From a virus (lineage: Duplodnaviria > Caudoviricetes): DNA of 44,859 nt. The stretch lies in IMG/VR virus record IMGVR_UViG_3300017747_003010, positions 1 to 44,859 of that record. One strand, 5' to 3'. Position 1 is the first letter of the stretch, and each line of letters begins with the position of its first letter. The notes under the pieces were generated by a model. That model was not told the origin of the DNA. It worked only from the letters and a program-made list of their open reading frames with translations, and ran no database searches. Below, piece by piece: positions 19,059-43,742 of the stretch. The translations under genes and the position numbers were made by a program.

Positions 19059-19096
19059 AAGAGGCTTGGTCTAGCTAGGTCTCTTTATTATATTTA
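19059..19096 (+). terminator. Hairpin terminator candidate overlapping a host-type promoter
   Basis: AAGAGGCTTGG/CTAGGTCTCTT stem (3 G-U) then TATTATATTT; also TTGGTC-N17-TATATT. Confidence 0.5.
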
Positions 19097-19101
19097 TGCA
19101 G

Positions 19102-19899
19102 ATGATAAAACTAGTAGATTTATTAAAAGAAATACAAGGTTCACCAAAAGCTATAATAATGGCTGGAGGAGCATCAGTAGGTAAATCAACAATCTTAAAA
19201 ACAATTGATTCACAATTAGGTGGGTTTGAAAATCTAAATGCTGATAAGTATGTAGAAGATAAAGATTCACCAATGTATGGTAATTTATCAGCTGCTTCAT
19301 CTCAAATAAGAAAACAAGATTTACCTAACGCTATAGCAGCTAAACGTAATTTAATTTACGACACCACAGCGTCTAATCTATCTACACTTCAACCAACATT
19401 AGATATGTTAAAAGAAGGTGGATATGATGTTATGATGTTGATGGTTTATGCTCACCCAATAGTATCATTTTTAAGAAACTATAAACGTGAACGTAAGGTA
19501 CCAGCTGCTGGTGTTTTAGGAACTTGGGCTAATGTTTACAATTTGTTAGACGAGTATAAAAACATATTCGGAGATAATTTTATTTTAGTAAATACACCAT
19601 CAGGCCCAGAGGAAGAAGCAGAAATCGCTAATTTTGAAAAAGCATATCAAGATGGTACTTTAAAAGAATATTTTGATAATTTGTTATCTACAGGTCAATT
19701 TACTTCATCATTTAGAAAAGATGATACTGAGTTGTCACCTGAAGAAAAAGCTAAACGAGAAAAATCAAGAGAAAAAACAAAACAACAACTTTATCAAAAT
19801 ATAGATAAAATAGCTAATACTTACGGGGATATTCAATCTAAATTAAATCCTATAGATAGTAAACAATTACCTACTATTATTAATAATTTTATTAAATGA
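19102..19899 (+). CDS. Zeta-toxin-like P-loop kinase
   Basis: IIMAGGASVGKST Walker A, NADKY, LIYDTT, RN.KRERKVP; probable start MIKLVDLLKE (track starts 19096). Confidence 0.75.
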   Translation: MIKLVDLLKEIQGSPKAIIMAGGASVGKSTILKTIDSQLGGFENLNADKYVEDKDSPMYGNLSAASSQIRKQDLPNAIAAKRNLIYDTTASNLSTLQPTLDMLKEGGYDVMMLMVYAHPIVSFLRNYKRERKVPAAGVLGTWANVYNLLDEYKNIFGDNFILVNTPSGPEEEAEIANFEKAYQDGTLKEYFDNLLSTGQFTSSFRKDDTELSPEEKAKREKSREKTKQQLYQNIDKIANTYGDIQSKLNPIDSKQLPTIINNFIK

Positions 19900-21527
19900 A
19901 CTCATTAACTAGATCACTCATATCATCATTTTTAACTGAGGCAACTCAAGAAACTATAGGTGTTTTTGGAGGTGGGTTTCAACCACCAACAAAAGGTCAT
20001 TTTGAAGTAGTTAAGAGAGCATTAGACGAAAATCCAACATTAGATAAATTTATTATATTTGTTGGGACAGGGGGTGGTAGATCAAATATAACTCAAGCTC
20101 AAACAGCTAAAATTTGGGAGATATATAAAAATTATTTATCACCAAAGATTGAAATACAACCATCAGCTAACCCTATTACTGATATTTACCGTCTAGCTAA
20201 AAATAACCCAGATGTTAAAATTAAGTGGTTTTTAGGTTCTAGAGAAGGTAATGAAGATGATTTTCTTCAATTTGATAAACGTACTAAAGCGGTAGATGAT
20301 AAACTCAATTTAGAACCAATTAATATTGTAACTGCTAACATAGCTAGTGGTACAGCTGCTAGAGCAGTATTAGATAATAAAGATTTATTCTTTACTTTTT
20401 TACCTAAAATAGAACTAAAAGACAAAGAAGAAATATATAGTATTTTACAAGGAGTATCAGAAGATGAAGAAATAACAACTTGGGTTAATGAAGTTGTACC
20501 TGAACCTGAAATTGATGATATTGATGATTACGCAGATGATGTGTTAGACCCTATTGATATTGATATTCCTCCTCATTTTATTGATAGAGTCAATGATAAA
20601 CGTAATCGCCCTGAAATTGAGACAGATGAGTTATATGATTTCTTCGATAAACTATCAGATGAAAAAGATGAATTAACAACTTTATTAGATCAAGGGGAAG
20701 TAGTAGCAACAGACTTAGACACTGATATTAATATTCCATTAACTAAAGATATTAGGAAAAGCCAATTGCGTGATAAAGTAGTAGCGGTGGCTAAAACTAT
20801 AATGCGTAAACCTAATTTTCAAACTACTAGTAATAAATTAACATTTGAACAAGTTCAAGGTGATAGTATAGTTTGTGATGGTTGTGGTTGGACTTGGAAA
20901 ATAGAAGATGGTGGAGATGATTTATTTATCTGTCATAAATGCGGTCATGATAATACACCTAAAGAAGACTTAAATAACTTTTTTGAACCATTACAAGATA
21001 AACAATTAGACCTAAATATATCCTCAGAACCAACAAGAGTAGATTATTATAAAAATTATTATAAAAATTTATCTCCACCAGATTTTAAAATAGATAAAGA
21101 TAAAGATAAAATTATAATATCTAATATTAATAAAAATGGTTTAGAAAACAATCCTGAATTTAAAGAATTGTTAGTATCATTAACAATGCATATGATGGAT
21201 CATATTGATATTGAACCATTACCTGATTTAATATTCATTGAAGATGATACTGAAAATGCTAAGGATTTGTTAGGCAAAACAGCATACTACAACCCAGATG
21301 ATAAATCAATCACTCTATACACATATGGACGTCATCCTAAAGATATATTACGTTCGTATGCTCATGAAATGATTCATCATAAACAAAACTTAGAAGGTAG
21401 ATTAACAAATATTCAAGGTCACAACATAAATGAAGATGATTACCTAAAAGAATTAGAAGCAGAAGCTTATACTTATGGTAATGGTTTATTATTTAGAGGT
21501 TGGGAAAATTCATTAGAAAATGATTAA
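19896..21527 (+). CDS. Multimodular protein: HIGH-type nucleotidyltransferase + HF.DR module + Zn ribbon + HExxH metallopeptidase-like domain
   Basis: GGGFQPPTKGH and SGTAAR (cytidylyltransferase-like); PHFIDRVNDKRN; CDGC..CHKC; LRSYAHEMIHHKQ...E.EAY. Confidence 0.7.
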   Translation: MNSLTRSLISSFLTEATQETIGVFGGGFQPPTKGHFEVVKRALDENPTLDKFIIFVGTGGGRSNITQAQTAKIWEIYKNYLSPKIEIQPSANPITDIYRLAKNNPDVKIKWFLGSREGNEDDFLQFDKRTKAVDDKLNLEPINIVTANIASGTAARAVLDNKDLFFTFLPKIELKDKEEIYSILQGVSEDEEITTWVNEVVPEPEIDDIDDYADDVLDPIDIDIPPHFIDRVNDKRNRPEIETDELYDFFDKLSDEKDELTTLLDQGEVVATDLDTDINIPLTKDIRKSQLRDKVVAVAKTIMRKPNFQTTSNKLTFEQVQGDSIVCDGCGWTWKIEDGGDDLFICHKCGHDNTPKEDLNNFFEPLQDKQLDLNISSEPTRVDYYKNYYKNLSPPDFKIDKDKDKIIISNINKNGLENNPEFKELLVSLTMHMMDHIDIEPLPDLIFIEDDTENAKDLLGKTAYYNPDDKSITLYTYGRHPKDILRSYAHEMIHHKQNLEGRLTNIQGHNINEDDYLKELEAEAYTYGNGLLFRGWENSLEND

Positions 21528-22020
21528 ATTAAAAGAGTTATTAGAAGAAGTTGAAAAAGACAAATATACTATTTATTGTGATTTAGATGGTGTATTAGTT
21601 GATTTTGAAAAAGGTTACGAAGAGGCAACAGGTAAACCATTTAGTGAGGCAGGTGAAGGTCCTGAATTTTGGGAACCAATACATAAAATGGGAGCTGCAT
21701 TTTGGATTAAATTAAAATGGTTACCTGATGGTAAAGAGTTATGGAATTATATCGCCCCATATAACCCAACATTACTATCAGCCCCATCACAAGAAGAATC
21801 ATCTAAAATAGGTAAACGAGTATGGAAGAAAAATAATCTACCAGATGCTAAAATGATTTTAACACCAGCTAGATTTAAACAAAAATACTCAGGAGAGAAT
21901 AAAATACTTATTGATGATATGGAAAAAAATATACAACAATGGAGAGATAAAGGTGGAATAGGAATATTACATACATCTACAGCAGACACAATTAAACAAT
22001 TAAAAGAATTAGGATTATGA
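21520..22020 (+). CDS. HAD-family 5'(3')-nucleotidase-like phosphatase
   Basis: IYCDLDGVLVDF motif I, LLSAP, K..W, LIDD..KN...W...GG.GILH. Confidence 0.85.
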   Translation: MIKLKELLEEVEKDKYTIYCDLDGVLVDFEKGYEEATGKPFSEAGEGPEFWEPIHKMGAAFWIKLKWLPDGKELWNYIAPYNPTLLSAPSQEESSKIGKRVWKKNNLPDAKMILTPARFKQKYSGENKILIDDMEKNIQQWRDKGGIGILHTSTADTIKQLKELGL

Positions 22021-22589
22021 AATATAGTTTAGTAAAACTAATGGAAAATGAAGGTGATGAAACTACTTTTTCTATTGGAAAAATATCAAATGATGTAAAG
22101 TTAACTCCATTAACAAAAACATCTGATGAAATTATTAGTATCATTAATGATCCTAAAAATTATAAAACATCTTTTATTAAAAATCCTACTTTAGTAAAAC
22201 AAGCAAAAGAAAATTACTTTGGAGTTGGAATACCACCAGCAGTTAAAAACTCAATGGAAAAAGATTTTTCTACTTTAAGTAAAGAAGAATGGATAGTAAA
22301 AAATAAAAAATATAAAGATCTTGAAAAAAAGTATAAAACATTATCTAATAATAATGGTAAATTTCATACCTATACAAAAGATACTAACACAGCGTTAGAA
22401 GCAGAGTTAAATTATATTCCCAAACCTACAGATTTATCACCAAATAAAGAAAAAAATTATATTCGTTTTATTCCTAATGATGTTGTAACTTACAGTAAAA
22501 TCGAAAGAAGTTTAGAAAAAATATTAACAAGTGCTGGTCTTAAAAAAGAAGAAGATTATACTATAACAGCAATACCCTCAAAATCATAA
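22017..22589 (+). CDS. Hypothetical protein
   Basis: 190-aa ORF, ATGA overlap with upstream gene. Confidence 0.65.
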   Translation: MKYSLVKLMENEGDETTFSIGKISNDVKLTPLTKTSDEIISIINDPKNYKTSFIKNPTLVKQAKENYFGVGIPPAVKNSMEKDFSTLSKEEWIVKNKKYKDLEKKYKTLSNNNGKFHTYTKDTNTALEAELNYIPKPTDLSPNKEKNYIRFIPNDVVTYSKIERSLEKILTSAGLKKEEDYTITAIPSKS

Positions 22590-22592
22590 GTT

Positions 22593-23165
22593 ATGGCAGA
22601 AAATGTTTTGAAAAAAGAATTTAAAGAAAAAGATATACAACGTCTTCGTAATTTAGTTCAAGGTAAATACGGTGAAAAAGCAACATTAAGTTCAGGTTAC
22701 ACTAAACAGCAAGAGTTCCATGAAGAAGGCGATATATGGGAAGAAGATGATCGTACTTGGACTATTAAAAATGGTATTAAACAAAATATCACTAAACTAG
22801 ACGCGGCTAAAAAGGAGATTAATCTACCATTATTTTGCCCATGCTGTAGTAAAGTAATGAAACCACATTTAGATAAAGCATTTTACCTACAACATAAAAG
22901 ATGCTTCAACTGCCAGGTAGACTTTGAAGCTGACCTTAGAAAAAAAGGATTACTTGAAGAATATGAAAAATTTGTCATCAACTCAGATATTGATGGAGTA
23001 ATACAAGAATTTAATATTTGGATAGACGAAGAAATAAATACATCTAATGAGTCATGGGTCACTGAAGCTGGTGAAGTAGAAAAATGGGTTGGGTCATCTA
23101 AACAAAAACTTCTTGAAAGTAAAGAAGAAACCATTAAGTATCTTGAGAGTTTGAAGAAACAGTAA
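22593..23165 (+). CDS. Hypothetical Zn-finger protein
   Basis: CPCC...CFNC; GDIWEE..RTWTIKNGIKQN. Confidence 0.65.
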   Translation: MAENVLKKEFKEKDIQRLRNLVQGKYGEKATLSSGYTKQQEFHEEGDIWEEDDRTWTIKNGIKQNITKLDAAKKEINLPLFCPCCSKVMKPHLDKAFYLQHKRCFNCQVDFEADLRKKGLLEEYEKFVINSDIDGVIQEFNIWIDEEINTSNESWVTEAGEVEKWVGSSKQKLLESKEETIKYLESLKKQ

Positions 23166-23174
23166 ATATTTATA
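23166..23174 (+). promoter_or_regulatory. Late-promoter-like motif ATATTTATA
   Basis: In 21-nt gap before ATG 23187. Confidence 0.5.
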
Positions 23175-23186
23175 ATAAAATTTACT

Positions 23187-23549
23187 ATGGATTTTGCTAA
23201 ATTAATTTCATATTTATTCCATTCTCAAACTCAAACTCACATATTTCATTTACAAACACAATCATATGCTGAGCATAAAGCATTACAAAAGTATTATGAA
23301 GGTATTGATGAATTAATAGATGGTATAGTGGAAGCATATCAAGGTAAATATGGTATAGTAAAAGGTTATTCTAATTTTAACTTAATGGAATATAATAATG
23401 TCCAACAAGTAATAGCATACTTAGATACACTTTGTAAAGCTGTTTATGCTACTTATGAAACAATTGAGGACAGTTATATCCTAAATCTATTAGATGGTAT
23501 CACAGAATTAATCAAATCTACCATCTATAAACTTCAAAATCTACGATAA
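23187..23549 (+). CDS. Ferritin/Dps-like four-helix protein (DUF5856-like)
   Basis: HIFHLQT.SYAEHKAL..YY..I..L.D..VE.YQG pattern. Confidence 0.7.
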   Translation: MDFAKLISYLFHSQTQTHIFHLQTQSYAEHKALQKYYEGIDELIDGIVEAYQGKYGIVKGYSNFNLMEYNNVQQVIAYLDTLCKAVYATYETIEDSYILNLLDGITELIKSTIYKLQNLR

Positions 23550-24157
23550 TGAAAAAAACACATGAGGCTAAACTTCACCCTGAAGAAAAAGAAATATTTC
23601 GTAATTGGTTAGATCAATTTAAAGAAGAAGGAGATAAGCAAAAAAAAGTCAATAAAGTAGTCGCTGCTAGAAAAGAACTAGATCGTGTTAGAAAAGACAT
23701 AACTAATGACGAGTACCAAGAAGCTAAAAAATACATTGATTCTAAAGCTAAAGAATGGGGAATTGAAGAAAATAATATTTATAGTAAAAATACAATGAAC
23801 GAATTAAGAACAGTAATAAACAAACTTGTTAAAGAGGAACTTGCTTTATTTGAAAAGAAAAAGAAAGAAGAAGAACCTACTGATGAGTTAGAATTAGATT
23901 TAGACACACCACAAGGTGATGAATCAGTAAATATAGAAGCCCCAGTTGAAGAACCAGCGACAGACACTGAACCAAACATGGATATGTCAGGTGGAGATTC
24001 AACAGAAAAAACTATTGGTAAAGGATTACAAATGGCTTTAGACGCGGCTAAACAACTACCAGATAGTGAAACTAAAAGTAAATTAATTCGCCAAATCGGA
24101 AATACAGCTTTGTTCTTCCTTAAGACTCAGATTCCAACAGGAAGTGAACAAGCATAA
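23549..24157 (+). CDS. Hypothetical acidic protein, with possible internal start at 23795
   Basis: 202-aa ORF; in-frame MNELRTVINKLVKEE preceded by ATATTTATA at 23775. Confidence 0.6.
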   Translation: MKKTHEAKLHPEEKEIFRNWLDQFKEEGDKQKKVNKVVAARKELDRVRKDITNDEYQEAKKYIDSKAKEWGIEENNIYSKNTMNELRTVINKLVKEELALFEKKKKEEEPTDELELDLDTPQGDESVNIEAPVEEPATDTEPNMDMSGGDSTEKTIGKGLQMALDAAKQLPDSETKSKLIRQIGNTALFFLKTQIPTGSEQA

Positions 24158-24180
24158 TACAAACAAATAAAATAAAATCT

Positions 24181-24354
24181 ATGAACAGTCAAGAGTTATT
24201 AGAAAAGTTGCATGGTTTACTAGAAGATCTAACAGCAGAACATGCTAAAGGATCTAAAGCAGCACAAGGACGCGCTCGCAAGATTGCAGGTGAAGTTAAA
24301 AAAGTAGCTAACGAGTATCGTAAAGCTTCTGTTGCTGAAAGCAAAACAAAGTAA
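24181..24354 (+). CDS. Histone H1-like Hc1-family small DNA-binding protein (57 aa; not in ORF track)
   Basis: Translated by hand: MNSQELLEKLHGLLEDLTAEHAKGSKAAQGRARKIAGEVKKVANEYRKASVAESKTK; matches Hc1 pattern KG.KAA..R.R....K....YRK.S; A-rich leader and downstream hairpin. Confidence 0.8.
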   Translation: MNSQELLEKLHGLLEDLTAEHAKGSKAAQGRARKIAGEVKKVANEYRKASVAESKTK

Positions 24355-24368
24355 GACATCAAAAAACA

Positions 24369-24399
24369 GTTATAGGGGAGCAAAGCTCCCCTTAACTTT
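24369..24399 (+). terminator. Intrinsic terminator-like hairpin
   Basis: AGGGGAGC-AAA-GCTCCCCT stem extendable by GTTA/TAAC, followed by TTT. Confidence 0.65.
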
Positions 24400-24411
24400 A
24401 AACTAAAAAGT

Positions 24412-25071
24412 ATGCCATACGAAAGAAAAGGAAAATGCGTTTATAATAAAGAAACAGGTAAGAAGAAAGGATGTTCTTCATCTGTTGCTAAGGCAAAGGC
24501 ATACTTAAAAGCATTATATGCTTCTGAACCAGAAGCTGCTAAAGAAGGATTATCACAAGGTGTTAAAGATAGAGCAGAAGGTATATATCAAGCAATTACA
24601 AAAGATCCTAAAGCGGTTAAAAACGCTATTAAAAAATATAAAAAAGAAGCTCAAGACGTATTATACGGAAGAGCAGTTAATATAGCTAAAAATCAAGTGC
24701 AACCTATGAACGAAGAAAGATTAAAAAAAGCAATCAAAAATGTCACTGAAAAATTAAAAGGTGGACAAAAGAAATTAGACGCTAATAAAAATGGAAAAAT
24801 TGATGCTGAAGATTTTAAATTGTTAAGAAAAGTTCATGAGGAAATTGATTATGAAGGTGAAATGGCTAAATCTGAACTTTATCGTTTAGTAGACAACGCT
24901 AAAAAATTAATGAGTATGCTTGATGACGATACTCAACTAGAAGGATGGGTACAAAGTAAAATCACCAAAGCAAATGACTACATAAACTCAGTTACACAAT
25001 ACTTAGAGTACCAATCAGTTAAATTAAATTCAATTGAAGAGAAAGCTGAGGAATATATCATAAAGAAATAA
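24412..25071 (+). CDS. Modular putative head-internal protein with EF-hand-like motif
   Basis: Basic N-module; LDANKNGKIDAEDF EF-hand-like loop; EGEMAKSEL...WVQSKITKA module. Confidence 0.6.
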   Translation: MPYERKGKCVYNKETGKKKGCSSSVAKAKAYLKALYASEPEAAKEGLSQGVKDRAEGIYQAITKDPKAVKNAIKKYKKEAQDVLYGRAVNIAKNQVQPMNEERLKKAIKNVTEKLKGGQKKLDANKNGKIDAEDFKLLRKVHEEIDYEGEMAKSELYRLVDNAKKLMSMLDDDTQLEGWVQSKITKANDYINSVTQYLEYQSVKLNSIEEKAEEYIIKK

Positions 25072-25072
25072 A

Positions 25073-25606
25073 ATGACTAATAGAAAGGAAATAGAAGATA
25101 AAATTAGAACAGTACTTAGACGAGTATATAGTACTAAGATTCAAAAAGATACTTTAGGTGTTACACCTGAAGATGTTGACTTTGATAAAGAAACATTTCC
25201 TATCTTAGCACAATTTGAGAACTTAAGACAAGTTTTAATTAACCTGTTAACTAAACAATACGAAGATTTTATTAAAGATATTTGGTGGGTAGCTCCACGC
25301 CCCACTACATTTAAAATCATTTTAGCTAATGATCAATTCTTTTATTTGATATATGGTGAAAGATCATGGACTGCTAAAGTAGAAGGTAAAAAATATTATT
25401 TAATGAATATTAGTGAAGAAGAAAGAGCAGCTGAAGCAATAGCCCGCATACTAATGTATGGAACAAGTGGTGGTGAAAAAGAAGAAGTAAGCGGAGAAGT
25501 CCCAACAGGAGGAGAAACACCAGCAGATGAAACCACCCCAGAAGCACCAGCAGAAGAAACACCACCAACTGAAGAAGAAACACCAGCAGAAACAGTACCA
25601 GCATAA
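25073..25606 (+). CDS. Hypothetical protein with acidic Pro-rich tail
   Basis: PRPTTFKI.L.N core; C-terminal ETP repeats. Confidence 0.65.
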   Translation: MTNRKEIEDKIRTVLRRVYSTKIQKDTLGVTPEDVDFDKETFPILAQFENLRQVLINLLTKQYEDFIKDIWWVAPRPTTFKIILANDQFFYLIYGERSWTAKVEGKKYYLMNISEEERAAEAIARILMYGTSGGEKEEVSGEVPTGGETPADETTPEAPAEETPPTEEETPAETVPA

Positions 25607-25935
25607 TGAAAACAATAAATAAGTTTATAAAAGATAATTGGTTTACTATACTACCTTGGTTTCTAGCTATAGCATTTTTAGTTCATTTATTAATAAAACC
25701 TGAACCTCCAAGACCAGTTGAACCACCTAAAGATAATCGTATTGATAGTTTAAGTCATATAGTTGATTCACTTAATATCGAGTATAATAAATTAAAACAT
25801 AATTACGACAGCGCACAAGCCAACGCTCGAGTAGAAATTCAAAAAATCTATATCCAAAATGCTAAAGACGTTTCTAACATTCGCTCTTACACTGTTGATC
25901 AACGCGACAGTATGTGGTCAACTCTTAACCCCTAA
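25606..25935 (+). CDS. Putative inner-membrane spanin-like protein
   Basis: N-terminal TM helix, Pro linker, coiled coil; overlaps next gene by 77 nt. Confidence 0.5.
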   Translation: MKTINKFIKDNWFTILPWFLAIAFLVHLLIKPEPPRPVEPPKDNRIDSLSHIVDSLNIEYNKLKHNYDSAQANARVEIQKIYIQNAKDVSNIRSYTVDQRDSMWSTLNP

Positions 25936-26311
25936 ACGTATTGTTTTAGGTGGAGACACAGGTATATTCTTTACTAATAAACAAGAAGTTGAATTATTAG
26001 TAAAATTCAAACAATTTGAAGGTTGTAAGTTAGAAGTAGCAAAATGGAAAAAATATGCTGATGATGCTGATTCACAAATTGATAGAGAAAGAGAAGCATA
26101 TGATGCTTTAGATAAACAATTTGACAGTATGCTTTTAGTAGCTAAAGATTTTGAAAAAAAGTATAATGATGAGTATACTGCTCATGAAAATACTAAAATT
26201 AAACTAGCTGAAATGACCACTAAAAAAGATAAATGGGTTAAAGCAACATTTATCACTGGTGGAGTTTCATTAGTAATAATCACACCTCTAGTTTATTTAT
26301 TAGCTAGGTAA
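25859..26311 (+). CDS. Putative spanin partner (signal peptide, coiled coil, C-terminal TM)
   Basis: MLKTFLTFALTLLINATVCG|Q signal; C-terminal hydrophobic FITGGVSLVIITPLVYLL. Confidence 0.5.
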   Translation: MLKTFLTFALTLLINATVCGQLLTPKRIVLGGDTGIFFTNKQEVELLVKFKQFEGCKLEVAKWKKYADDADSQIDREREAYDALDKQFDSMLLVAKDFEKKYNDEYTAHENTKIKLAEMTTKKDKWVKATFITGGVSLVIITPLVYLLAR

Positions 26312-26323
26312 ATATTTATCGAT

Positions 26324-27307
26324 ATGAATATATTCGATAAATTTCTTAACAGTGTTTCTTATAAATTTCCTAAGGGTTACCCAGACATGAGTAACCCTAA
26401 TGATGTTTTATTACTTAATTCTTTAATAAATGAGACATTAGGAGAAGATATAAATTTAAATGAAATGGGAATTTTAACTGAAACTGATAGTTCATTTGAT
26501 GAACGAATAAAAGCAGCTTTAGGAGTTAATGATATCCCAAAATGTAAAACCCCATTACAAGTAGGTCAATCTTTTAATTTAAGAGGAGACGATGAAAAAA
26601 TTTGGGCTGTATTATACCCAGTTAAACCATTAAAAGCTGACGGTACACCAACAGCCGGATCAGGAAATGGAGAAGTGGCTACTTATTGGGCTTACCAACA
26701 TAATATAAAATCAATAGATGTTATAGATGGTAGAGGAGGTAAAGGAGGAGAAAACCCAGATTTAATTATTGGTGGAGTTGGAGTTGAAGTTAAAGCATAT
26801 GACACTAAAACTATTACTTTAGGTAAATTTGGAACTGACACAGAAACAATCAGTCTTTTAAATAAAGTATTTGGTACATTATCATTATTTAATGAAGAAA
26901 CTATTAAAGCTAACACAGGTAATTTTAAACCTCAAGATTTATTAAATGGTTTTAAAATTATATCTGAAATTTATTCTAATAATGATTTAAAAAAATTAGA
27001 TATAGCTAAACCTTTTTTTAGTAAGATAGATACTTTATATAAAACATTAGGATTAGATTCTAACTCAACCCCTGAAGAAGCAACTATAGCTTTACTACGT
27101 AAACTTTTATGGACAAAGTTAATTAAAAAACCTAATATGAATCAAGAAGTAGGGTATATTTTAAATGTTAATGCTACTGGAAAAGGAGAATACACAGAAA
27201 TAACTAAAGCAATTATAGACAGTATCCCAGATGAGAATATCTTAAATAATGGAGTTACAGTTAAATCATCTGAAATATCAATGAACTTTAATCAATTGTT
27301 TAAATAA
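26324..27307 (+). CDS. PD-(D/E)xK restriction-endonuclease-like protein with N-terminal leader
   Basis: GNGE...PDLIIGGVGVEVKAY catalytic-type motif; leader with INE, LNE, LTE. Confidence 0.55.
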   Translation: MNIFDKFLNSVSYKFPKGYPDMSNPNDVLLLNSLINETLGEDINLNEMGILTETDSSFDERIKAALGVNDIPKCKTPLQVGQSFNLRGDDEKIWAVLYPVKPLKADGTPTAGSGNGEVATYWAYQHNIKSIDVIDGRGGKGGENPDLIIGGVGVEVKAYDTKTITLGKFGTDTETISLLNKVFGTLSLFNEETIKANTGNFKPQDLLNGFKIISEIYSNNDLKKLDIAKPFFSKIDTLYKTLGLDSNSTPEEATIALLRKLLWTKLIKKPNMNQEVGYILNVNATGKGEYTEITKAIIDSIPDENILNNGVTVKSSEISMNFNQLFK

Positions 27308-27927
27308 TGAAACAACCAAATAAAAAATGTGATTGTGGAGCACCTCTATTAAATGAGTCTCTTCAACATAAAATGCCTATATCGGAAGCAATGCGATATC
27401 ATTTGGGTAATAACATTCAAGTGCATAATAACATATTCCGCCCTGGTTCTAAAGCTCACATTGAATTACTCAATGAAACTCGCTTATTATGGGTTAAAGG
27501 TATTATTAAACTTCAAGATGCTGATAAAAGATTATTTGAAAATACTGATTTAGGTCGTTTTGGAATGTTTGAAGGTGAAATAGTACCTTTAGATTTACCA
27601 ATGATGGAAATTGAAATATTAACAGAAGTAGAGTTAGAAGAAGAAAAGAAACAACCTGCTTTAGGAAAACCAAAACGTGGTGGATCTAAAAAATTCTATG
27701 TTTATGTTAAAGATCCTAAAACTAAACGTATTAAAAAAGTATCATTTGGTATGGCGGGTGGTGGATTACGTGCTAAATTAAACAATCCTAAAGCACGTCA
27801 AGCGTTTTCAAAAAGACATGATTGTCCTAATAAAAAAGACAGAACAAAGGCGTCGTACTGGTCATGTCGCGTCCCCAGATATTCTAAGTTGTTAGGATTC
27901 AAAACCACTTTTACCGGTTATTGGTAA
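27307..27927 (+). CDS. Two-module hypothetical protein with basic C-terminal domain
   Basis: YHL...FRPGS..H module; KKFYVYVK...VSFG...AR.AF..RH.C...YWSC module. Confidence 0.65.
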   Translation: MKQPNKKCDCGAPLLNESLQHKMPISEAMRYHLGNNIQVHNNIFRPGSKAHIELLNETRLLWVKGIIKLQDADKRLFENTDLGRFGMFEGEIVPLDLPMMEIEILTEVELEEEKKQPALGKPKRGGSKKFYVYVKDPKTKRIKKVSFGMAGGGLRAKLNNPKARQAFSKRHDCPNKKDRTKASYWSCRVPRYSKLLGFKTTFTGYW

Positions 27928-27944
27928 GGTAAGCGACACCCCCA

Positions 27945-27953
27945 ATATTTATA
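27945..27953 (+). promoter_or_regulatory. Late-promoter-like motif ATATTTATA upstream of homing endonuclease
   Basis: 15 nt before ATG 27969. Confidence 0.5.
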
Positions 27954-27968
27954 ATAAATGGAGGGAAC

Positions 27969-28595
27969 ATGGCTTATGTTTATCTTATAACTAATATTAT
28001 TAATAATAAAAAATATATTGGATCTTCTAGAAAGACTCAAGTTGATGAAAACTATTATGGTAGTGGAAAAGCATTAAAAAATGCTTTAAAAAAACATGGT
28101 AAAGAAAATTTTATTAGAGAAATATTATGGGAAGGTGAGGGAGATGCTCGAGTTATGGAAACATATTATTTGACAAAATTTAACGCGGCTGGGAATTCAA
28201 TGTTTTATAATATGACTAATGATGCTAGAGGAAATAATCTTCATAAAGAAGAAACTAAAAAGACAGTTAGTGAAAAACTAACAGGACGTAAATTTTCAAA
28301 AGAAATTTGTGAAAAAATATCTAAAGCTAAAACAGGTTCAACAACATCTAAAAAAGGTAAATCTGATGGCCCTAAACCTAATGTATCTAAAGCTCATAAG
28401 GGTAGAGTAAGTCCTAATAAAGGAAAGGGTAATCCTGTGGCTTTATATAAAATATCAGGTGAATACATCCAAACATATCCTAGCTATCATGATTTAGCTC
28501 TTGATCTTCAAATTAACCCAGAAACAGTAAGATGTCAACTTATTGGGAAAGCTCAAACTATTAAGAATAAGCAATATAGGGCTCAATATGTATAA
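27969..28595 (+). mobile_element. Free-standing GIY-YIG homing endonuclease with NUMOD3-like repeats
   Basis: YVYLITN.IN.KKYIG, YYGSG, F.REIL, YN; HKEETKKTVSEKLTGRKFSKEICEKISKAK and SPNKGK NUMOD3-type motifs. Confidence 0.85.
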
Positions 28596-28599
28596 TCAT

Positions 28600-29232
28600 A
28601 TGAAACTAACACACATACTTAAACAACTCCTTGAGGAGCAAAAGAAAAAAGCAGATCGCTGTAAGCGTATTGCTGATCGTCGATATGATAAGCCATCTGC
28701 TTACAAATCAGGTGCTATTGTTAGATGTCGTCAAGGTAAAATCTGGAAAGATTTAAAAGAAGATAATAAACCCTCAAAAGAAATATATCAGCAAGCCTTA
28801 AAAGATATTAAACCATTAATACCTGTTTTATCACATAATCTTATTCATCAACAAGGTTTAGAACATAATGATAAAAATATGATTAAATTAAATCAAGAAA
28901 TATTTGATTTAGTTGAAAAAGGAGATGATGATACTCTTGATAAATTATGGGATTTAGCAGGAAATTCATTATTAAAAAATGCTATAAATATTATTACATT
29001 TTATCATAAATCTAATTTAACTGAAGATGAATCATTACATAAATGGTTTAAACGTAAAGGAGCACCTGGTAAAGAAGGTGGGTGGGTAGACTGTAATACA
29101 TGCCGTAATGGTAAATGTAAATCATGTGGTAGAAAAAAAGGTGAAAAACGAGCTAAATACCCTTCATGTCGCCCTACACCATCTCAATGTAAAACCAAAG
29201 GTAAAGGTAAAAAATGGGGGAAAACAAAATGA
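28600..29232 (+). CDS. Modular basic Cys-rich hypothetical protein
   Basis: Start moved to MKLTHILKQLLEE; PSAYKSGAIVRCR module; SLHKWF...WVDC...CGR...YPSCRP module. Confidence 0.65.
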   Translation: MKLTHILKQLLEEQKKKADRCKRIADRRYDKPSAYKSGAIVRCRQGKIWKDLKEDNKPSKEIYQQALKDIKPLIPVLSHNLIHQQGLEHNDKNMIKLNQEIFDLVEKGDDDTLDKLWDLAGNSLLKNAINIITFYHKSNLTEDESLHKWFKRKGAPGKEGGWVDCNTCRNGKCKSCGRKKGEKRAKYPSCRPTPSQCKTKGKGKKWGKTK

Positions 29233-29477
29233 TTAAATTAATAGACTTACTAGAAGGTAAACAAGAGGAAAAATACCCTCCTTACATGTACTCCCCAGTA
29301 GGGTTTGGCTGTCATGTCTGTGAGTATTATTATATGGAAGATAAAAAACATTACTGTAATAATAAAGAATACCAAAAATATAAAGGTACTAATGAATTAG
29401 TAGATGATAACGGTAACCAAATTAAAGATCCATCTAAATGGTGTTCTAATTGGTTTCATCCTAAAACTGAAGAATAA
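29229..29477 (+). CDS. Small Cys-rich (CxxC...C...C) protein
   Basis: Start at ATGA overlap, MIKLIDLLE; CHVCEYY...C...WCSNW. Confidence 0.65.
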   Translation: MIKLIDLLEGKQEEKYPPYMYSPVGFGCHVCEYYYMEDKKHYCNNKEYQKYKGTNELVDDNGNQIKDPSKWCSNWFHPKTEE

Positions 29478-29483
29478 TTGTCC

Positions 29484-29492
29484 ATATTTATA
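29484..29492 (+). promoter_or_regulatory. Late-promoter-like motif ATATTTATA
   Basis: 13 nt before ATG 29506. Confidence 0.5.
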
Positions 29493-29505
29493 ACAAATTA
29501 TTTTC

Positions 29506-32193
29506 ATGAAAAAAATTGCTATATTATTAGAATATATTAATGAAAACTATGATATCTTAGCAGAGGTATATGGTCAAAAGGTTATAGATACTATAAAGGC
29601 TGACTTTAAAAAACAAATGGAAGATAACCCTGGAGTCCCAGGATTTTCTGATCCAATCACTAAAAAACCATTTACTGATGCTCAATTAGATCAATTTATT
29701 AGTGCTTTTGATAAATTAAGAAGCAATTTACCTTCTCCTCAAAATGATATATACAATTATACAACATTAAAGGATGAATTTGAACTAGATGATTTCTTTT
29801 CACTTTTAGCTAATAAAGATAAAACAACTACAGAAAAAGAAAAAGAACTAGAGATACCAGATTTAATATACTCTAGTGAAGATGGTAATATAAAATTATT
29901 TAATGGTAATAGAGAAGATTTATGTACTCGATTTAAAGGAGAAGTTCCATGGTGTATAACTAAAGGAAGTTGGGCAGGATATAGATATAGCTCACGAAAT
30001 GGTTATCCAACATTCTATTTAGTTAAAAACTCTAACTTACCAGATGATAACGCGTTAAGTTTTGTAGCTATACAATCTAGAGCTAATGATAACTGGGTTT
30101 ATACTAATAGAAAAAACAGCCCATATGAGTCTCGTGTAATGACTTTTGATGAATTATTAAGAGAAGTTCCATGGTTATCTGAGATTCCTAATGTTAAATC
30201 TAAAATGCCTTGGGTTGATATTACAGATACTGAAAGAGAAGAACAAGAATATAAAAATACCCCAGTCTCATACTCTACTTGGAATTTATATTTTACACCA
30301 ACACAAAAACTAAGATATTTTAATATTAGAAGTACAGGTAATAATCCTGTAAAACTTTTTGATGATATGTCCCAAGAGAAATTTGTCTCTGACTATCTCC
30401 CAAAATTAGATAAAAATTTAAAGGAAAGTATCATTAGAAATCAACTAGTTGAAATGAAGTATCTAGTAGATAACTATGATAATCCTAATTTCACTGACTC
30501 AGATAAAAAATTAATATTAAGGTTTTACCTTCAAGAAGGTAGATTATCAATAAAACAAGCTGAAGAATTATTAGCTAAAACAACTGTTCCATTTGAACTA
30601 AAAAAAGATATAGTTAATAATGATAAGATAACTAAAAATGATGATCGAAGATTTTTTGTATCATCTAATGGAAATGACATTATTGAATTAATGTTTGAAA
30701 ACAGATTTCAAGATGTTGCTATTAGAGTATTTAAACTTAAACCTAATGGTACAACTGTTTCAAAAGTATTTGATAAGGTCTCATCAACAATAGCTTCTAA
30801 ATATTTATCTGTTTACCCTGATATAGACACACTTCCATTTAGTGTTATATTAAAATTAGTATCATCAGACGCAGCTACACCAGATTTAATTAAAAAAGTT
30901 ATTGATAAAGCTAAAACTGATGAAGAATCAGCTTTACTCGCTAAACAATTAGAAGATGGTTCAACTTTACTTATAGATACTAACGCCTTTACTGCTTATA
31001 AAATAGTAAATAATAAAGTAACATCATTACCATTTTCTAGTGAAGAAGTTCAAAATTCCTTAACTGACGCAGGAGAAAATGAAAAAATAACAAATAATAT
31101 ATTAAGTGTATTTACTAATGAAACGGGTAATATTCCTAGTAATATTTCTAAAGATGCTCTTTTAACTCTTGTTAACAGCATCCCACCTCAAAATAGAGTT
31201 GTTACATTATCAGGTACTCCGTATATTTTAAAACCAGCCGCAGATGATAATGATAATAAATTATTTACTCTTATTCCAACTCTTAAAGATGGAGTAACAG
31301 CTTTTAGAATATGGGTAAATAGAAATGATGAATATTGGAGACGAGCTAGTTATGATACTTCTATCCTTACACCTGAGTATTGTCAATTAATTTTTAATTA
31401 TCTTAGAAGTCAAAATATGACCTATACTAACAGAGATCTTATGGGAATATTTGGTAGTAATATAGGTAGAAGTCCACGTGGTTTTAGAGCTTTTATTGAT
31501 AATAACCCACCATTAGATAGTGCTAATACTTTAAGACCTATAATGTATGAAGATAGTCCATACTTACTTAACACTCAAAACCCAAGAGAAAGTTATAGAT
31601 TAGGAACTACTGGTAGAATACTTAATAAATCATTCTCACCTAGAGAGGTAGCAGCGATTACAGGACAACCAGCCCCAGCGGCTACTAGAAGAGGTAGACA
31701 ACCAGGAGCAGCCGCAGCAGCTACACCACCTGCAGCTGCTGGCCAAGTAAATGATGCTGTACGACAAGCAATTGATGCTGCAGGTTTAACCACTGGATTT
31801 AATGCTTTACCCACACCGCTTAAAAATAGAATATTATCAGGTACAGTAGTAGATAATGACAGTGGGGCAACAAGTCGTAATAGAGCATTAGGAGATAGAG
31901 GACGAGTTATGAGAATTATATCTGCTGGTCAAAGTAAAATGTATCTCATTCGATTATCAGCTAGTGGTACTATGATAGCTCAAGCCTCATTCCAACCTGA
32001 AGCAAGACACTTTATTATAACCTCTAATACTGCGTTTAATATGGGTAGAGTAGGTAACTTTATAGATGCATTAGATGCTCGTAACTTAAGAGAAAACGAA
32101 AAAAATATTTTAAAAAGAATAGCTCTAGGAGCAGCCACTAAAGAAGAGTTAGAAGAAATAAAATTAAAAAATATAAAAAATGAAGATCAATAA
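29506..32193 (+). CDS. Large hypothetical protein with PcfJ-like WCI motif
   Basis: 895 aa; PWCITKGS...Y...TFYLV; Ala/Pro linker before C-terminal module. Confidence 0.6.
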   Translation: MKKIAILLEYINENYDILAEVYGQKVIDTIKADFKKQMEDNPGVPGFSDPITKKPFTDAQLDQFISAFDKLRSNLPSPQNDIYNYTTLKDEFELDDFFSLLANKDKTTTEKEKELEIPDLIYSSEDGNIKLFNGNREDLCTRFKGEVPWCITKGSWAGYRYSSRNGYPTFYLVKNSNLPDDNALSFVAIQSRANDNWVYTNRKNSPYESRVMTFDELLREVPWLSEIPNVKSKMPWVDITDTEREEQEYKNTPVSYSTWNLYFTPTQKLRYFNIRSTGNNPVKLFDDMSQEKFVSDYLPKLDKNLKESIIRNQLVEMKYLVDNYDNPNFTDSDKKLILRFYLQEGRLSIKQAEELLAKTTVPFELKKDIVNNDKITKNDDRRFFVSSNGNDIIELMFENRFQDVAIRVFKLKPNGTTVSKVFDKVSSTIASKYLSVYPDIDTLPFSVILKLVSSDAATPDLIKKVIDKAKTDEESALLAKQLEDGSTLLIDTNAFTAYKIVNNKVTSLPFSSEEVQNSLTDAGENEKITNNILSVFTNETGNIPSNISKDALLTLVNSIPPQNRVVTLSGTPYILKPAADDNDNKLFTLIPTLKDGVTAFRIWVNRNDEYWRRASYDTSILTPEYCQLIFNYLRSQNMTYTNRDLMGIFGSNIGRSPRGFRAFIDNNPPLDSANTLRPIMYEDSPYLLNTQNPRESYRLGTTGRILNKSFSPREVAAITGQPAPAATRRGRQPGAAAAATPPAAAGQVNDAVRQAIDAAGLTTGFNALPTPLKNRILSGTVVDNDSGATSRNRALGDRGRVMRIISAGQSKMYLIRLSASGTMIAQASFQPEARHFIITSNTAFNMGRVGNFIDALDARNLRENEKNILKRIALGAATKEELEEIKLKNIKNEDQ

Positions 32194-32551
32194 ATTAAAA
32201 GAAATTATTCGTGAAGAGTTAGCTTCTATTAAAGAATTAGGATTTGATTATCCTGGTAAAACTAAATCATTAGATTTAGATCAAGAATCTGAAGATTACC
32301 GTCGTGGGTATACTGATGGTTTAAGAGATGGATATGATAGAGGATTTAAAGATGCTGAAACTGTAAGTGAATCTGAAACAAAAGAAGCGCCACCTAAAAC
32401 TACACCTAAAACAAAACCAGGTAACCCAGGTTTAACTCCAACACCCGGTAAAACTCCTAAAGAAAGACCAGCTAAAGCTAAAACAAATGAAGATAAAGCA
32501 GCTACTTTAGTAAAAGGAATCATGAATAAGTATAAAAAACTAAAGAAATGA
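32180..32551 (+). CDS. Hypothetical protein with KEIIREE leader and Pro/Lys/Thr-rich tail
   Basis: Y..GY.DG..DGY..GF repeat; PKTTPKTKPG. Confidence 0.65.
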   Translation: MKINKLKEIIREELASIKELGFDYPGKTKSLDLDQESEDYRRGYTDGLRDGYDRGFKDAETVSESETKEAPPKTTPKTKPGNPGLTPTPGKTPKERPAKAKTNEDKAATLVKGIMNKYKKLKK

Positions 32552-33912
32552 AAAAACTCCATGAAATGAAATATAGCGATATATTCAAAGACCCAGAAAC
32601 AATGTCTGGTGTTGAAAGAAGAAACGCTGAAACTAGAGCTAAATTACTAGGCAATGATTCTTTGATGAAGATAATGCAAAAATCTCAAGTATTGCTTAGT
32701 CAATTAATGTCAGCTGAAGCACCATATAAGACTCAGTTAGAAGAATTAGCTGTAGAAATGGTTAAAAAAATGTACCCAATTATTGATGAATATAATATCG
32801 AAATTGAGGCTACATTAGGTCAAGATCAATTACCTCCTCCTCCCCCTAAAGGAAAAGAAGAGGAAGAAGAAACACCTATGCCTTCTGAAGATCAACCTGA
32901 TCTTAAAAATGATGAAGTAGCTAAAAGACGTCTTATTAACGCTATTACTCAAGGAGCATCAATCTATGGTTCATTAGAAAAACCATTTGTGGATTTTTTA
33001 GATGATGTAGATGATAATCTATTACAAAGATATAGTGCTGTAGTTACAAATCTTGATGACTCAGTTTCTAAATATGGAGATACATTAAAGAAAGTATTTG
33101 GAATATTTTATGATAAAGAAGCTGTAGCGATGTTATTAGCTATGTTAGCTGGTAACCCAGAAGGTTCAGGTGGTAAAGGTGGAGAATCAGATGCTAGCTT
33201 TGATGATGAAGGTAATTTAAAAATCAGAGCAACAGGTTTAGTATTCCCATTTTTAGTCCATGAAATTATTAAAGGATTATATGAAATAGTTTCACTTCAA
33301 GGATTTACTAAAGATGTTTCTACTAACCAAGCCACAGTAGCGGCAGCAGATAAATTAGAACACGAACCAGAAGACTTTGGTACCGGTACTCATATATTAA
33401 GTGATTTAAGAGCATTATATAATAATGCTAATGTTCGTAATAAAATATCATTTGAATTATTTTTAGCTAATATATATCGAGAAGATGACGCTAAAGCATT
33501 TGTTGAATTTATTGAAAACTTACTAAACAATAGAATAACACCAGCACAAAAACGTTGGGCTGAAGATCATATGGAACCAACTCCTGATATTGAAGATGAA
33601 GATGATGATGATATAGATAATATCAACTTACCTGATTTTGGTTTAAATGAATCTAAACCATATAAAGATCTTGAAGTCACAGATGAATACATTATTCGTG
33701 AGTTTAATGAAAATATTGATCCAATTGAATTAAAATGGCACCGTGATAAAGAAGATCGTGTTGTTGAAATCATAGGTGAAACTGATTGGAAGATACAATT
33801 AGAAGATCAACTACCAACTTCTATAAATGAGTCAATATTTATACCAAAAGGACAATGGCATCGTGTTATTAAAGGTAATGGTACATTGACATTGAAGATA
33901 AACAAAAAATGA
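32548..33912 (+). CDS. Hypothetical protein with C-terminal cupin module
   Basis: KRRLINAITQG, FP.L.HEIIKG.YE core; after GLNE: WHRD.EDR...IFIPKGQWHRVIKG cupin motifs. Confidence 0.65.
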   Translation: MKKLHEMKYSDIFKDPETMSGVERRNAETRAKLLGNDSLMKIMQKSQVLLSQLMSAEAPYKTQLEELAVEMVKKMYPIIDEYNIEIEATLGQDQLPPPPPKGKEEEEETPMPSEDQPDLKNDEVAKRRLINAITQGASIYGSLEKPFVDFLDDVDDNLLQRYSAVVTNLDDSVSKYGDTLKKVFGIFYDKEAVAMLLAMLAGNPEGSGGKGGESDASFDDEGNLKIRATGLVFPFLVHEIIKGLYEIVSLQGFTKDVSTNQATVAAADKLEHEPEDFGTGTHILSDLRALYNNANVRNKISFELFLANIYREDDAKAFVEFIENLLNNRITPAQKRWAEDHMEPTPDIEDEDDDDIDNINLPDFGLNESKPYKDLEVTDEYIIREFNENIDPIELKWHRDKEDRVVEIIGETDWKIQLEDQLPTSINESIFIPKGQWHRVIKGNGTLTLKINKK

Positions 33913-34283
33913 AACGATCTCGTTTAATAGAAATAATTAGAGAAGAACTTCAACTTATCTTAAAAGAAGAGTCCACTCAATATAATATTGAGGGGCTACT
34001 TCTTACTAACACTGAAGAACGCCCTCAAAAAGATATACTATCTGATATTAGATCATTACCTGGTGTAACAATTGTATCAAGTAAGGATTATGATTTATCA
34101 GGCGAAACATCAGCATTTAGTAATCCTAACTATTATACAATAATTAAGATTAAAGTAGATCCACATCCATATCCTAATGGGTTCACAGATGAAGATCTAC
34201 AACAATTATTTACTGATATTAGAGCAATTAAAGGTGTTCGAAACTTTAAATTAAATAAATCTATAGAGAAAAAAACTGTTTAA
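33909..34283 (+). CDS. Small alpha/beta (ACT/ferredoxin-like) hypothetical protein
   Basis: DIRSLPGVTIV and DIRAIKGV internal duplication. Confidence 0.6.
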   Translation: MKRSRLIEIIREELQLILKEESTQYNIEGLLLTNTEERPQKDILSDIRSLPGVTIVSSKDYDLSGETSAFSNPNYYTIIKIKVDPHPYPNGFTDEDLQQLFTDIRAIKGVRNFKLNKSIEKKTV

Positions 34284-34293
34284 TAAAACACAT

Positions 34294-34302
34294 ATATTTA
34301 TA
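34294..34302 (+). promoter_or_regulatory. Late-promoter-like motif ATATTTATA
   Basis: 16 nt before ATG 34319. Confidence 0.5.
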
Positions 34303-34318
34303 ATAAAATACAACAAAA

Positions 34319-35140
34319 ATGAAATTAGAAAATTTACGTACTCTTATTCGTGAATCAATTAATGAGTATATTAAAGAAATAGATGAAGCTGGTACTAGAG
34401 CAATGTATGAAGCTAAAATGACAGCTTGTGATAAAGCCATAAATGAAAGAAAACAGAAAATTGAAATGGCTGAATCATTAGAAGAAATGCAAGGCATGTT
34501 TGATGAAACCAAAATGGGTGAATTAAAAAAAGAAATCAAAATGCTTGAAAAGCAAAAAGCCAAGTATGGTAAAATGCTTGAAAAAATGAACAAAGCTAAA
34601 AAATCTGCTCCTAAGGATGAAAAAGAAGTAACTACTGATGCTCCTATTGATGAAACAGATGTAATGGCTGAAATGGATGTAACTGAAGAAACAACCGAAG
34701 AAGCATTAAATGAGTCATTCTTAAAAATGCAAAAATTGGCTGGTGTGATTACTGAAGCTCAATATAATCAAAGAAAAAGTTTAATTGAGAACCAATTAAA
34801 TGAAGAAAAAAAATTTACTGAGATATTAGGGATGAATGGATATCATTTAATGATAACTGACAAAATGGAACAAGACATAAAAAATCAGTTAGGTTTAGGA
34901 GATGAAGATATTAAATTTGGATACAATGAAGAACAAGGTAATCGCTTCTATTGGTGGGCCACTATAAATATTAATCTTGAAGCTTTACCTGAAGACAAAA
35001 AATCTTCTTACAATGACATAATCATGAAAATTGTTAGACCAGGAAAAACAGATGAAAAAGCAACAGTTCCAACTAACTCTCCTAAAACTACAAAACCTAG
35101 TGGTTTCTTTAATAAATTAAAATCTTCGTTTTCTAAATAA
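34319..35140 (+). CDS. Coiled-coil/acidic putative head-internal (core/scaffold-like) protein
   Basis: Many [ILV]-x-E sites; internal ESFLKMQKLAGVITE motif. Confidence 0.6.
   Translation: MKLENLRTLIRESINEYIKEIDEAGTRAMYEAKMTACDKAINERKQKIEMAESLEEMQGMFDETKMGELKKEIKMLEKQKAKYGKMLEKMNKAKKSAPKDEKEVTTDAPIDETDVMAEMDVTEETTEEALNESFLKMQKLAGVITEAQYNQRKSLIENQLNEEKKFTEILGMNGYHLMITDKMEQDIKNQLGLGDEDIKFGYNEEQGNRFYWWATININLEALPEDKKSSYNDIIMKIVRPGKTDEKATVPTNSPKTTKPSGFFNKLKSSFSK
34717..34743 (+). repeat. 27-nt dispersed repeat encoding FLKMQKLAG (copy 1)
   Basis: ATTCTTAAAAATGCAAAAATTGGCTGG vs copy at 41265, 1 mismatch. Confidence 0.8.
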
Positions 35141-37847: not shown

Positions 37848-37866
37848 GATATAAATGTTATATTTA
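37835..37866 (+). promoter_or_regulatory. Host-sigma-type promoter
   Basis: TTTG-N20-TATATTTA upstream of ATG 37887. Confidence 0.7.
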
Positions 37867-37886
37867 ATTAAAATAAAATAAAGGTT

Positions 37887-41253: not shown

Positions 41254-41523
41254 ATGAATAAAGAATTCTTAAAAATGCAAAAGTTGGCTGGATTGATCAA
41301 TGAAAGCCAAGTTAAAGAGATAATTGGCGATATTGATGATACTCCATCTCCAGACGGAGATTTTGATCCAATGGATTATGCTGATGACCCAGCAGACTAC
41401 GATAAAGTTGCTTTTCTAGTAGACGCCTTCCAACATGTTTGGAATATGGGTAAAGGAAACAATACAGTTGATTTTAATGATTTAGCTAAATCTACTATCA
41501 AAGATTTGGAAACTAGATTTTAA
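41254..41523 (+). CDS. Small acidic protein with MQKLAG leader
   Basis: MNKEFLKMQKLAGLINE; ATATTTATA at 41224. Confidence 0.7.
   Translation: MNKEFLKMQKLAGLINESQVKEIIGDIDDTPSPDGDFDPMDYADDPADYDKVAFLVDAFQHVWNMGKGNNTVDFNDLAKSTIKDLETRF
41265..41291 (+). repeat. 27-nt dispersed repeat encoding FLKMQKLAG (copy 2)
   Basis: ATTCTTAAAAATGCAAAAGTTGGCTGG. Confidence 0.8.
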
Positions 41524-43716: not shown

Positions 43717-43742
43717 TATTTATTGGTATAATTTAATATAAA

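Follow-up and report, generated by a model that had tools for sequence, protein, structure and literature searches.

The virus record IMGVR_UViG_3300017747_003010 (Duplodnaviria; Caudoviricetes), whose full length of 44,859 nt is referred to here as the window, carries five open reading frames (ORFs) whose products string together unrelated modules with [ILV]xE tripeptides between them. Such tripeptides are reminiscent of the processing site of phage T4, whose head protease gp21 is described as cutting after L/I-X-E, the earliest example being a Glu-Ala bond (PMC9026906, accessible text). We refer to every [ILV]xE motif as a site and number it by the position of its Glu in the ORF; the ORFs are named by their first nucleotide and are all encoded on the + strand. 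Here we describe the architecture of these chains and of their relatives, and discuss whether they are cargo polyproteins that are cut by the head protease.

ORF 19896 (19896..21527, 543 aa) begins with a leader (19896..19940) that ends in LTE15, with Ala next, and continues through a nucleotidyltransferase-like domain of the HIGH type, an acidic linker in which the motif scan places VSE189 and VNE199 (20454..20492), the HFIDR module (20493..20849), whose C-terminal end is T-F-E (TFE318) here and V-F-E in relatives, and finally a Zn ribbon, a middle segment and a zincin-like HExxH domain (20850..21524). ORF 24412 (24412..25071, 219 aa) consists of a basic module up to AKE45, a middle module, an internal leader from Met99 to VTE113, an EF-hand-like 30-mer, VHE143, the EGEMAK module and IEE210; the middle module and the internal leader had been overlooked in the first-pass annotation, which was made from the letters alone. 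In ORF 27307 (27307..27927, 206 aa) a leader ending in LNE17 precedes the folded module A, and a linker with LTE107 and LEE112 (27607..27642), which is an insertion hot spot in relatives, joins it to the basic KKFYV module. ORF 28600 (28600..29232, 210 aa; an in-frame ATG within an ORF listed from 28543) encodes a leader (LLE12/LEE13), the PSAY module, LKE54, an 88-aa insert (28762..29025), LTE142 and a Cys-rich basic module; the insert has no homologue in the catalogue of relatives described below, and 12-nt near-repeats (10/12 alike) that flank it encode both sites. ORF 32548 (32548..33912, 454 aa) starts with a leader (LHE6), followed by a large domain with an Asp-rich linker, LNE368 and a cupin-like module that is mostly a separate, leaderless gene in relatives. 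Four of the five ORFs thus begin with a short leader that closes with a site, ORF 24412 being the exception. The coordinates agree with those of the first-pass annotation, and our motif scan recovered all the sites that it had named. The domain labels are all weak and below curated cut-offs (cytidylyltransferase-like, E 0.0055; EF-hand, E 8e-4; cupin clan, E 0.012 and 0.15; MPTase-PolyVal for the HExxH domain of ORF 19896, E 0.027), and a sequence search of the PDB gave no match to the cupin profile and nothing usable for ORF 19896.

The whole-protein number of sites is ordinary in three of the ORFs when compared with shuffled sequences (8 vs 9.3 in 19896, 3 vs 4.1 in 24412, 10 vs 10.2 in 32548) and above the shuffle in the other two (6 vs 2.7 in 27307, 5 vs 1.8 in 28600); the argument therefore rests on where the motif lies. 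A site falls within 16 residues at the start of the next module at seven of 11 profile-defined junctions, against 2.4 expected (P ~0.003), a test that is partly circular because the module seeds were set with knowledge of the boundaries proposed earlier. Independent of those boundaries are BLAST breakpoints, counts at an insertion junction, the preference for Ala after Glu, and a switch of the motif with the class of protease.

Searches with the portal and five of these modules yielded 399 loci of relatives, whose 6019 proteins make up our catalogue; of the 5240 that are non-redundant, 1607 belong to a single homology network that contains all five ORFs. The modules recur in the catalogue in many settings: complete ORFs include 126 with the cupin alone and nine with the large domain and cupin, 75 with PSAY and Cys-rich modules and 14 with an insert between these two, and further orders comprise Cys-rich and PSAY reversed, Zn ribbon-cupin-PSAY-Cys-rich, large domain-PSAY, and nucleotidyltransferase-x-EGEMAK. 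Cultured phages show other arrangements again, in gp079, gp080 and gp088 of immuto, gp159 of phiM12 and gene 18 of Melnitz (nucleotidyltransferase ... module A-KKFYV), and the HFIDR module stands alone or is otherwise fused in immuto gp080, Melnitz gene 31 and phiM12 gp159. These separate searches bear out the earlier proposal that the modules are shuffled between genes; no fixed fusion emerged, and the modules are shown by their sequence distribution to be mobile units. A programmed fusion of the stand-alone cupin with its upstream gene was also considered and set aside, the commonest overlaps of 4 or 1 nt being explained by ordinary translational coupling.

Module boundaries were mapped without reference to any annotation as internal alignment starts with at least three supporting subjects in an all-against-all BLAST comparison, which gave 1549 breakpoints in the network and 1020 after dereplication. 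Windows from -10 to +6 around the latter contain 708 sites, against 394 in composition-preserving shuffles (1.8-fold), and 559 windows hold a site compared with 333 after shuffling, an enrichment beyond composition that substantiates the first-pass expectation for domain boundaries. The ratio is 1.04 in module interiors and 0.77 at junctions of other components (178 windows, at least two supports), a control that omits two small head-region components which also showed the motif. Control motifs at the breakpoints gave 0.81 for [ILV]xD, 0.95 for xQ, 1.13 for xK, 0.70 for [ILV]E, 0.93-0.94 for [ILV]xxE and 1.27 for the reversed motif, and the motif peaks where alignments start at the hydrophobic residue (12.7% at +2). 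Among breakpoint families of at least three, 18 of 22 lie above expectation and four below; the clustering chained 1115 of the 1549 points into one family. Counted module by module, fused contexts carry a site in 116/126 cases for KKFYV (46 expected), 59/61 for Cys-rich (32), 17/18 for the Zn ribbon (7), 18/20 for PSAY (10) and 9/13 for the cupin (3.4), with further counts of 28/32 for module A, 9/11 each for HFIDR and nucleotidyltransferase, and 57/93 for EGEMAK. At the N-terminus a site is found in 38/40 contexts of the nucleotidyltransferase domain and in 2/40 of the cupin.

The junction between module A and KKFYV in the family of ORF 27307 offers a closer view. In a first sample, the best 120 of 7383 longer KKFYV homologues (117 scored), 41 proteins have an insert at this position (36 unique, 10 clusters); each of the 36 unique inserts is flanked by sites left and right (23.6 and 14.9 expected), and all 76 insert-free junctions keep a site though the linker sequence varies. 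A second sample, the best 150 of 3503 representatives at 50% identity, holds 101 proteins with inserts, in 73 families, 45 without and four unscored. The left end of the insert has a site in 85/101 (39 expected) and the right end in 75/101 (19 expected; fixed 14-residue window), compared with 17/101 in mid-insert (22 expected); the two sides are not independent events, since inserts can inherit flanking sites from a multi-site parent linker. Within a 24-residue window 146 of the 150 have a site, with Leu (89), Ile (43) or Val (14) at P3, Ala after Glu in 98 of the 146, and no conservation at P4 and P5. A Pfam scan of 75 of these proteins named Tad3 (E 1.3e-30), Imm5-like and DUF5661 matches within the insert region, and most of the proteins gave no match. 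Tad3, a type I Thoeris inhibitor, is reported to bind the Thoeris sensor ThsB (PMC13728456, accessible text). Its homologues (P0225, residues 185-296, and P0013) are inserted between module A and KKFYV, and next to them comes a leader-like helix with a site at its end.

The same KKFYV module is also found fused to a head protease of another class, the XkdF serine protease, as in Roseobacter phage CRP-6. We compared the best 120 homologues of this form (119 scored, 68 unique upstream strings, mostly close relatives) with the T4-type representatives. Ahead of the module, XkdF-fused copies have hydrophobic-x-K followed by Ala in 62/68 (3.0 expected) and [ILV]xE[AS] in 0/68; the T4-type set has [ILV]xE in 114/134 and xxKA in 0/134, and residues downstream of the site may be identical in the two. 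The Glu motif thus becomes a Lys motif when the module is joined to XkdF, which implies that the motif follows the protease rather than the module. In non-T4 phages (L455:2435-3124 and P0269-P0387) KKFYV, DUF5824, ChaB and further modules are fused ahead of an XkdF head protease with hydrophobic-x-K then Ala at their joints, the same design with another specificity.

Structural predictions agree with separable modules. An AlphaFold2 model of ORF 27307 (54 sequences) has two confident domains and a pTM of 0.46, and its linker residues 101-110, which contain LTE107, have a pLDDT of ~43; the Atlas model of ORF 19896 has a pTM of 0.37, from which alone its packing was judged. Neither is predicted to pack as a single unit. 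The HFIDR part of the latter matches proteins of 231-927 residues at TM 0.86-0.90. A fold search with the model of ORF 27307 found no PDB match at E 0.001 and, in a viral fold library, matches only to uncharacterised, XkdF- or ChaB-labelled proteins, and an Atlas search with the large domain of ORF 32548 returned none above 0.76. Most module cores are depleted in sites relative to shuffled sequences (ratios of 0 for Cys-rich, 0.2 for HFIDR, 0.33 for M46, 0.42 for KKFYV, 0.5 for HExxH, 0.62 for EGEMAK and 0.7 for nucleotidyltransferase), against 1.25 in other proteins.

The record ends within the head region, with the terminase large subunit and the beginning of a T4-type portal (42145..44859, + strand). 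A gp21-type protease is absent from the record itself and is encoded by a near-identical contig (L001), which agrees with its last 1525 nt at 1509 positions (99%) and beyond the overlap encodes Peptidase_S77 (gp21 type, E 6e-28), an acidic scaffold and gp23; a protease of this type was found in 10/10 large relatives searched. The same motif occurs at the N-termini of the capsid protein and the protease, and in the scaffold. A site within the first 20 residues is found in 1163/1607 network proteins (614 expected by shuffle) and in 1159/3560 other proteins (859 expected). Leader families recur on unrelated proteins, and some internal joints retain an entire leader including its Met. One leader, F-x-K-M-Q-K-L-A-G, matches the scaffold C-terminus and is present at 37 N-termini, 19 internal positions and 22 C-termini. 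In the window this tag forms the N-terminal leader at 41254..41304, ending in INE17, and an internal copy at 34715..34756 between LNE132 and ITE146 of ORF 34319 (both + strand); it also lies at 7180-7216 of L001, and is reused as leader, internal cassette and C-terminal tag on unrelated proteins. A leader search pattern as the sole map of cargo was tried and rejected, its strict form hitting 1-9 genes per genome in six near-complete genomes and its loose form about a third of all genes.

Upstream of leader genes a TATTTATA-type element is found in 13/33 cases, against 151/1321 other genes. We infer that TATTTATA elements are late promoter-like sites, which would place the leader genes in late expression. 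One such element (23776-23836) lies inside ORF 23549, 19 nt upstream of an internal Met83 that begins a leader ending in VKE96; since homologous matches nearly all begin at residues 80-85, Met83 may be a second start or mark a recent fusion. Virion data are available for a related design in the cyanophage S-CREM2, whose virion table lists gp154 (a cytidylyltransferase), gp155, gp156 and gp160 as detected (PMC10665884, accessible text). Its gp160 is punctuated by sites along the chain and includes a PSAY module (E 7e-15), and a module of gp156 occurs fused within network proteins.

The pattern is real, non-random and widespread at the level of sequence, and on this footing we consider that the five ORFs probably encode cargo polyproteins that are loaded into the prohead, cut by the gp21-type protease and deliver several small proteins or peptides. 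The first-pass annotation had proposed both that modules are shuffled and that they are released during head maturation; the shuffling is established, and release is suggested by the pattern of sites. The chains would be expressed late from the TATTTATA promoter-like sites and targeted to the prohead by the short leader, one family of which copies the C-terminal tag of the scaffold. During head maturation the phage's own gp21-type protease would cut after Glu, preferably at Glu-Ala, and would leave intact the folded cores, which mostly avoid the motif. Basic pieces would stay with the DNA, and enzymes and anti-defence modules would be ejected into the host; as not every boundary has a site, some modules would leave as multi-domain pieces. 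New cargo is probably gained by recombination of a gene or module into the linker, often together with its old leader, because an insert between sites would need no targeting signal to be packaged and set free. More tentatively, and at a little short of an even chance in our estimation, tailed phages in general may run a plug-in cargo system through protease-coded linkers, with linkers as insertion sites for a large shared pool of small effectors, including anti-defence proteins such as Tad3, which would be packed as polyproteins, cut in the head and injected ahead of all phage gene expression. The code at the joints would then change whenever a module passes to a phage whose protease is of another class, so that both the injected proteome and the protease specificity would become readable from sequence.

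A number of observations weigh against the cargo polyprotein reading. The coincidence of boundaries with gp21-type sites claimed in the first-pass annotation does not extend to four of the 11 window junctions, namely HFIDR/Zn ribbon (T-F-E), Zn ribbon/middle segment, middle segment/HExxH and the first of ORF 24412, whose A-K-E is INE, VNE or IKE in relatives; ORF 24412 also has no N-terminal site. Only 55% of breakpoint windows hold a site, with 33% expected by chance, and the breakpoint z-scores are inflated because related sequences are not independent. Marking is weak or absent for HExxH (33/60, 20 expected), the middle segment (3/11) and the M46 module (7/16, 7 expected), and three cores are not depleted in sites: module A, which is enriched 2.45-fold, the EF-hand piece (1.9-fold) and the cupin (1.1-fold). 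The catalogue is biased towards the modules, as its loci were collected with modules as queries, and the 150 representatives count as T4-type on the presumption of a gp21 in their genomes, just as a Lys specificity is ascribed to XkdF-type proteases from their joints. Within S-CREM2 gp131-199, a site in residues 4-16 is found in 3/9 detected non-structural proteins and 7/50 undetected ones, counts too small to conclude from, and the authors of that study allow for co-purification (PMC10665884, accessible text).

In another scenario the sites are cut and the chains serve as filler of the prohead core, most of their pieces being shredded and leaving the head, or staying as basic DNA-neutralising peptides, with no delivery to the host. 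Scaffolds and the core of module A have similar site densities (6.0 and 5.9 per 100 residues), several products would be basic peptides of 30-95 residues with a predicted pI of 9.8-10.7, and T4 core proteins are described as cut to fragments, most of which leave the head (PMC9026906, accessible text). Most cores, however, avoid the motif and several disfavour Glu itself (E/(D+E) of 0.06-0.35 vs 0.53), module A is predicted to be well folded and would shield its sites, the inserts and partners include enzymes and Tad3, and the turnover of inserts at one junction is far above the needs of a filler; we regard this scenario as unlikely, while giving it some weight.

It is less plausible still that the motifs are uncut relics of leaders kept by fusion and that the proteins work as entire multi-domain chains. 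Internal leaders with their Met (Met99 of ORF 24412, Met83 of ORF 23549) fit this reading, and the near-repeats around the insert of ORF 28600 are what recombination between site-coding DNA would leave. Relics do not account for a cupin that is leaderless when alone yet has a site in 9/13 fusions, for the 76/76 insert-free junctions that keep a site despite a variable linker, or for a motif that tracks the class of protease, and a site that lies exposed on a packaged protein should not escape cutting. Self-processing by the HExxH metallopeptidase, independent of the head protease and taking place either in the host or ahead of packaging, has a precedent in the autoproteolysis proposed for polyvalent proteins (PMC5512222, accessible text); the weak match of this domain to MPTase-PolyVal and the presence of ART-PolyVal in one relative point the same way. 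The domain is missing from four of the five ORFs, and the motif is common to the N-termini of capsid and protease and to the scaffold and switches with the head protease, all of which makes self-processing very improbable. In favour of chance, or of acidic and amphipathic linkers, the motif has only two fixed positions, occurs at 1.7 per 100 residues in other proteins and is somewhat enriched even when reversed. The composition-preserving shuffles, the register and residue controls, the preference for Ala after Glu and the switch from Glu to Lys speak against this explanation, which they largely refute.

The record as a whole (G+C 26-33%, nearly all genes on one strand) represents part of the genome of a phage that has a T4-type portal and is related to Flavobacterium phage immuto, and the immuto phages are the closest cultured phages with these modules. 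Baseplate and tail-type genes are followed by a primase and a nuclease, a mostly unannotated block, the terminase and the T4-type portal at the end. In this cargo-like block (19096..35140, + strand) 12/21 genes carry a site among their first 20 residues, against 8/27 in the rest of the window. It also encodes a zeta-toxin-like kinase (19096-19899) and a 5'-3' deoxyribonucleotidase (21520-22020), both with leaders that end in a site and both part of fused chains in relatives, and a Dps-like DUF5856 protein (23187-23549) that is a member of the same homology network as the five ORFs. An 895-aa protein (29506-32193) bears three sites at its N-terminus and matches no family; in two relatives a cupin is joined to the C-terminus of its homologue without a site. 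Two overlapping membrane-anchored coiled-coil ORFs without leaders (25606-26311) have, by eye only, the look of a spanin or lysis pair. Of two GIY-YIG homing endonuclease genes (16879-17325 and 27969-28595) the second splits the block between ORFs 27307 and 28600, and further downstream a DUF2201 metallopeptidase/VWA gene adjoins a MoxR-like AAA ATPase (36654-39080).

For eukaryotic viruses, polyprotein processing is a textbook strategy. The T4 literature, in its accessible part, describes the head protease as trimming single cargo proteins or shredding the core, and no prior description of cargo polyproteins cut by a head protease was found in titles and abstract openings, a coverage outside which most of the subscription literature lies. 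If our reading is true, many late genes now labelled 'hypothetical' in the abundant T4-type phages of aquatic habitats would be libraries of virion-delivered proteins, the ends of which could be read from sequence. A single junction yields 73 insert families as candidates for anti-defence or host takeover, one of them already a Tad3 homologue, and the pattern provides a candidate specificity for XkdF-type proteases. The cultured phages immuto, S-CREM2, Melnitz and CRP-6 are open to direct test.

Among known systems, polyvalent proteins (Iyer et al. 2017, PMC5512222, accessible text) are alike in their variable combinations of unrelated domains and predicted packaging, and may share the zincin peptidase, ART and Pol-beta nucleotidyltransferase types, which score weakly here, the latter two in relatives; ART-PolyVal was found at E 1.6e-5, below the cut-off, in 1/63 related long proteins, and the domain scans gave no match to LPD or PBECR domains. 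That account, in its accessible part, proposes an internal metallopeptidase, does not mention 'linker' and has 'prohead' only in a reference, whereas here a head-protease motif lies at the joints; most modules here are, unlike those of polyvalent proteins, small and outside Pfam. The T4 prohead core proteins gp22, gp67 and gp68 also have many internal gp21 sites, but they are cut throughout and mostly leave the head, whereas in the present chains the sites gather at the ends of modules and are depleted from most cores, only module A and the scaffold having sites throughout the chain. Closest in gene neighbourhood, modules and motif is vB_FspM_immuto (Immutovirus), which fuses the modules differently, gp079 combining two EGEMAK modules with one that is the separate gene 25073 here; a limited literature listing turned up no virion proteome for it. 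The T4 internal proteins IPI, IPII, IPIII and Alt (PMC9026906, PMC5694885, PMC7411985, accessible texts) share with our ORFs a gp21-class protease, the L/I-x-E motif, a short leader ending in a site and a cargo that varies between related phages, and T4 Alt is trimmed at both ends. Their precursors are described as giving one mature product each, whereas the present chains have several mobile modules and internal sites; unlike theirs, the junctions here take dozens of inserts, and one leader family copies the C-terminus of the scaffold. A scan of the window proteins against the Pfam and PHROG libraries found no match to the IPI, IPII, IPIII or Alt families. The chains would thus work like T4 loading by capsid targeting sequence (CTS) and gp21, and differ from the T4 internal proteins in homology and in the number of their products.

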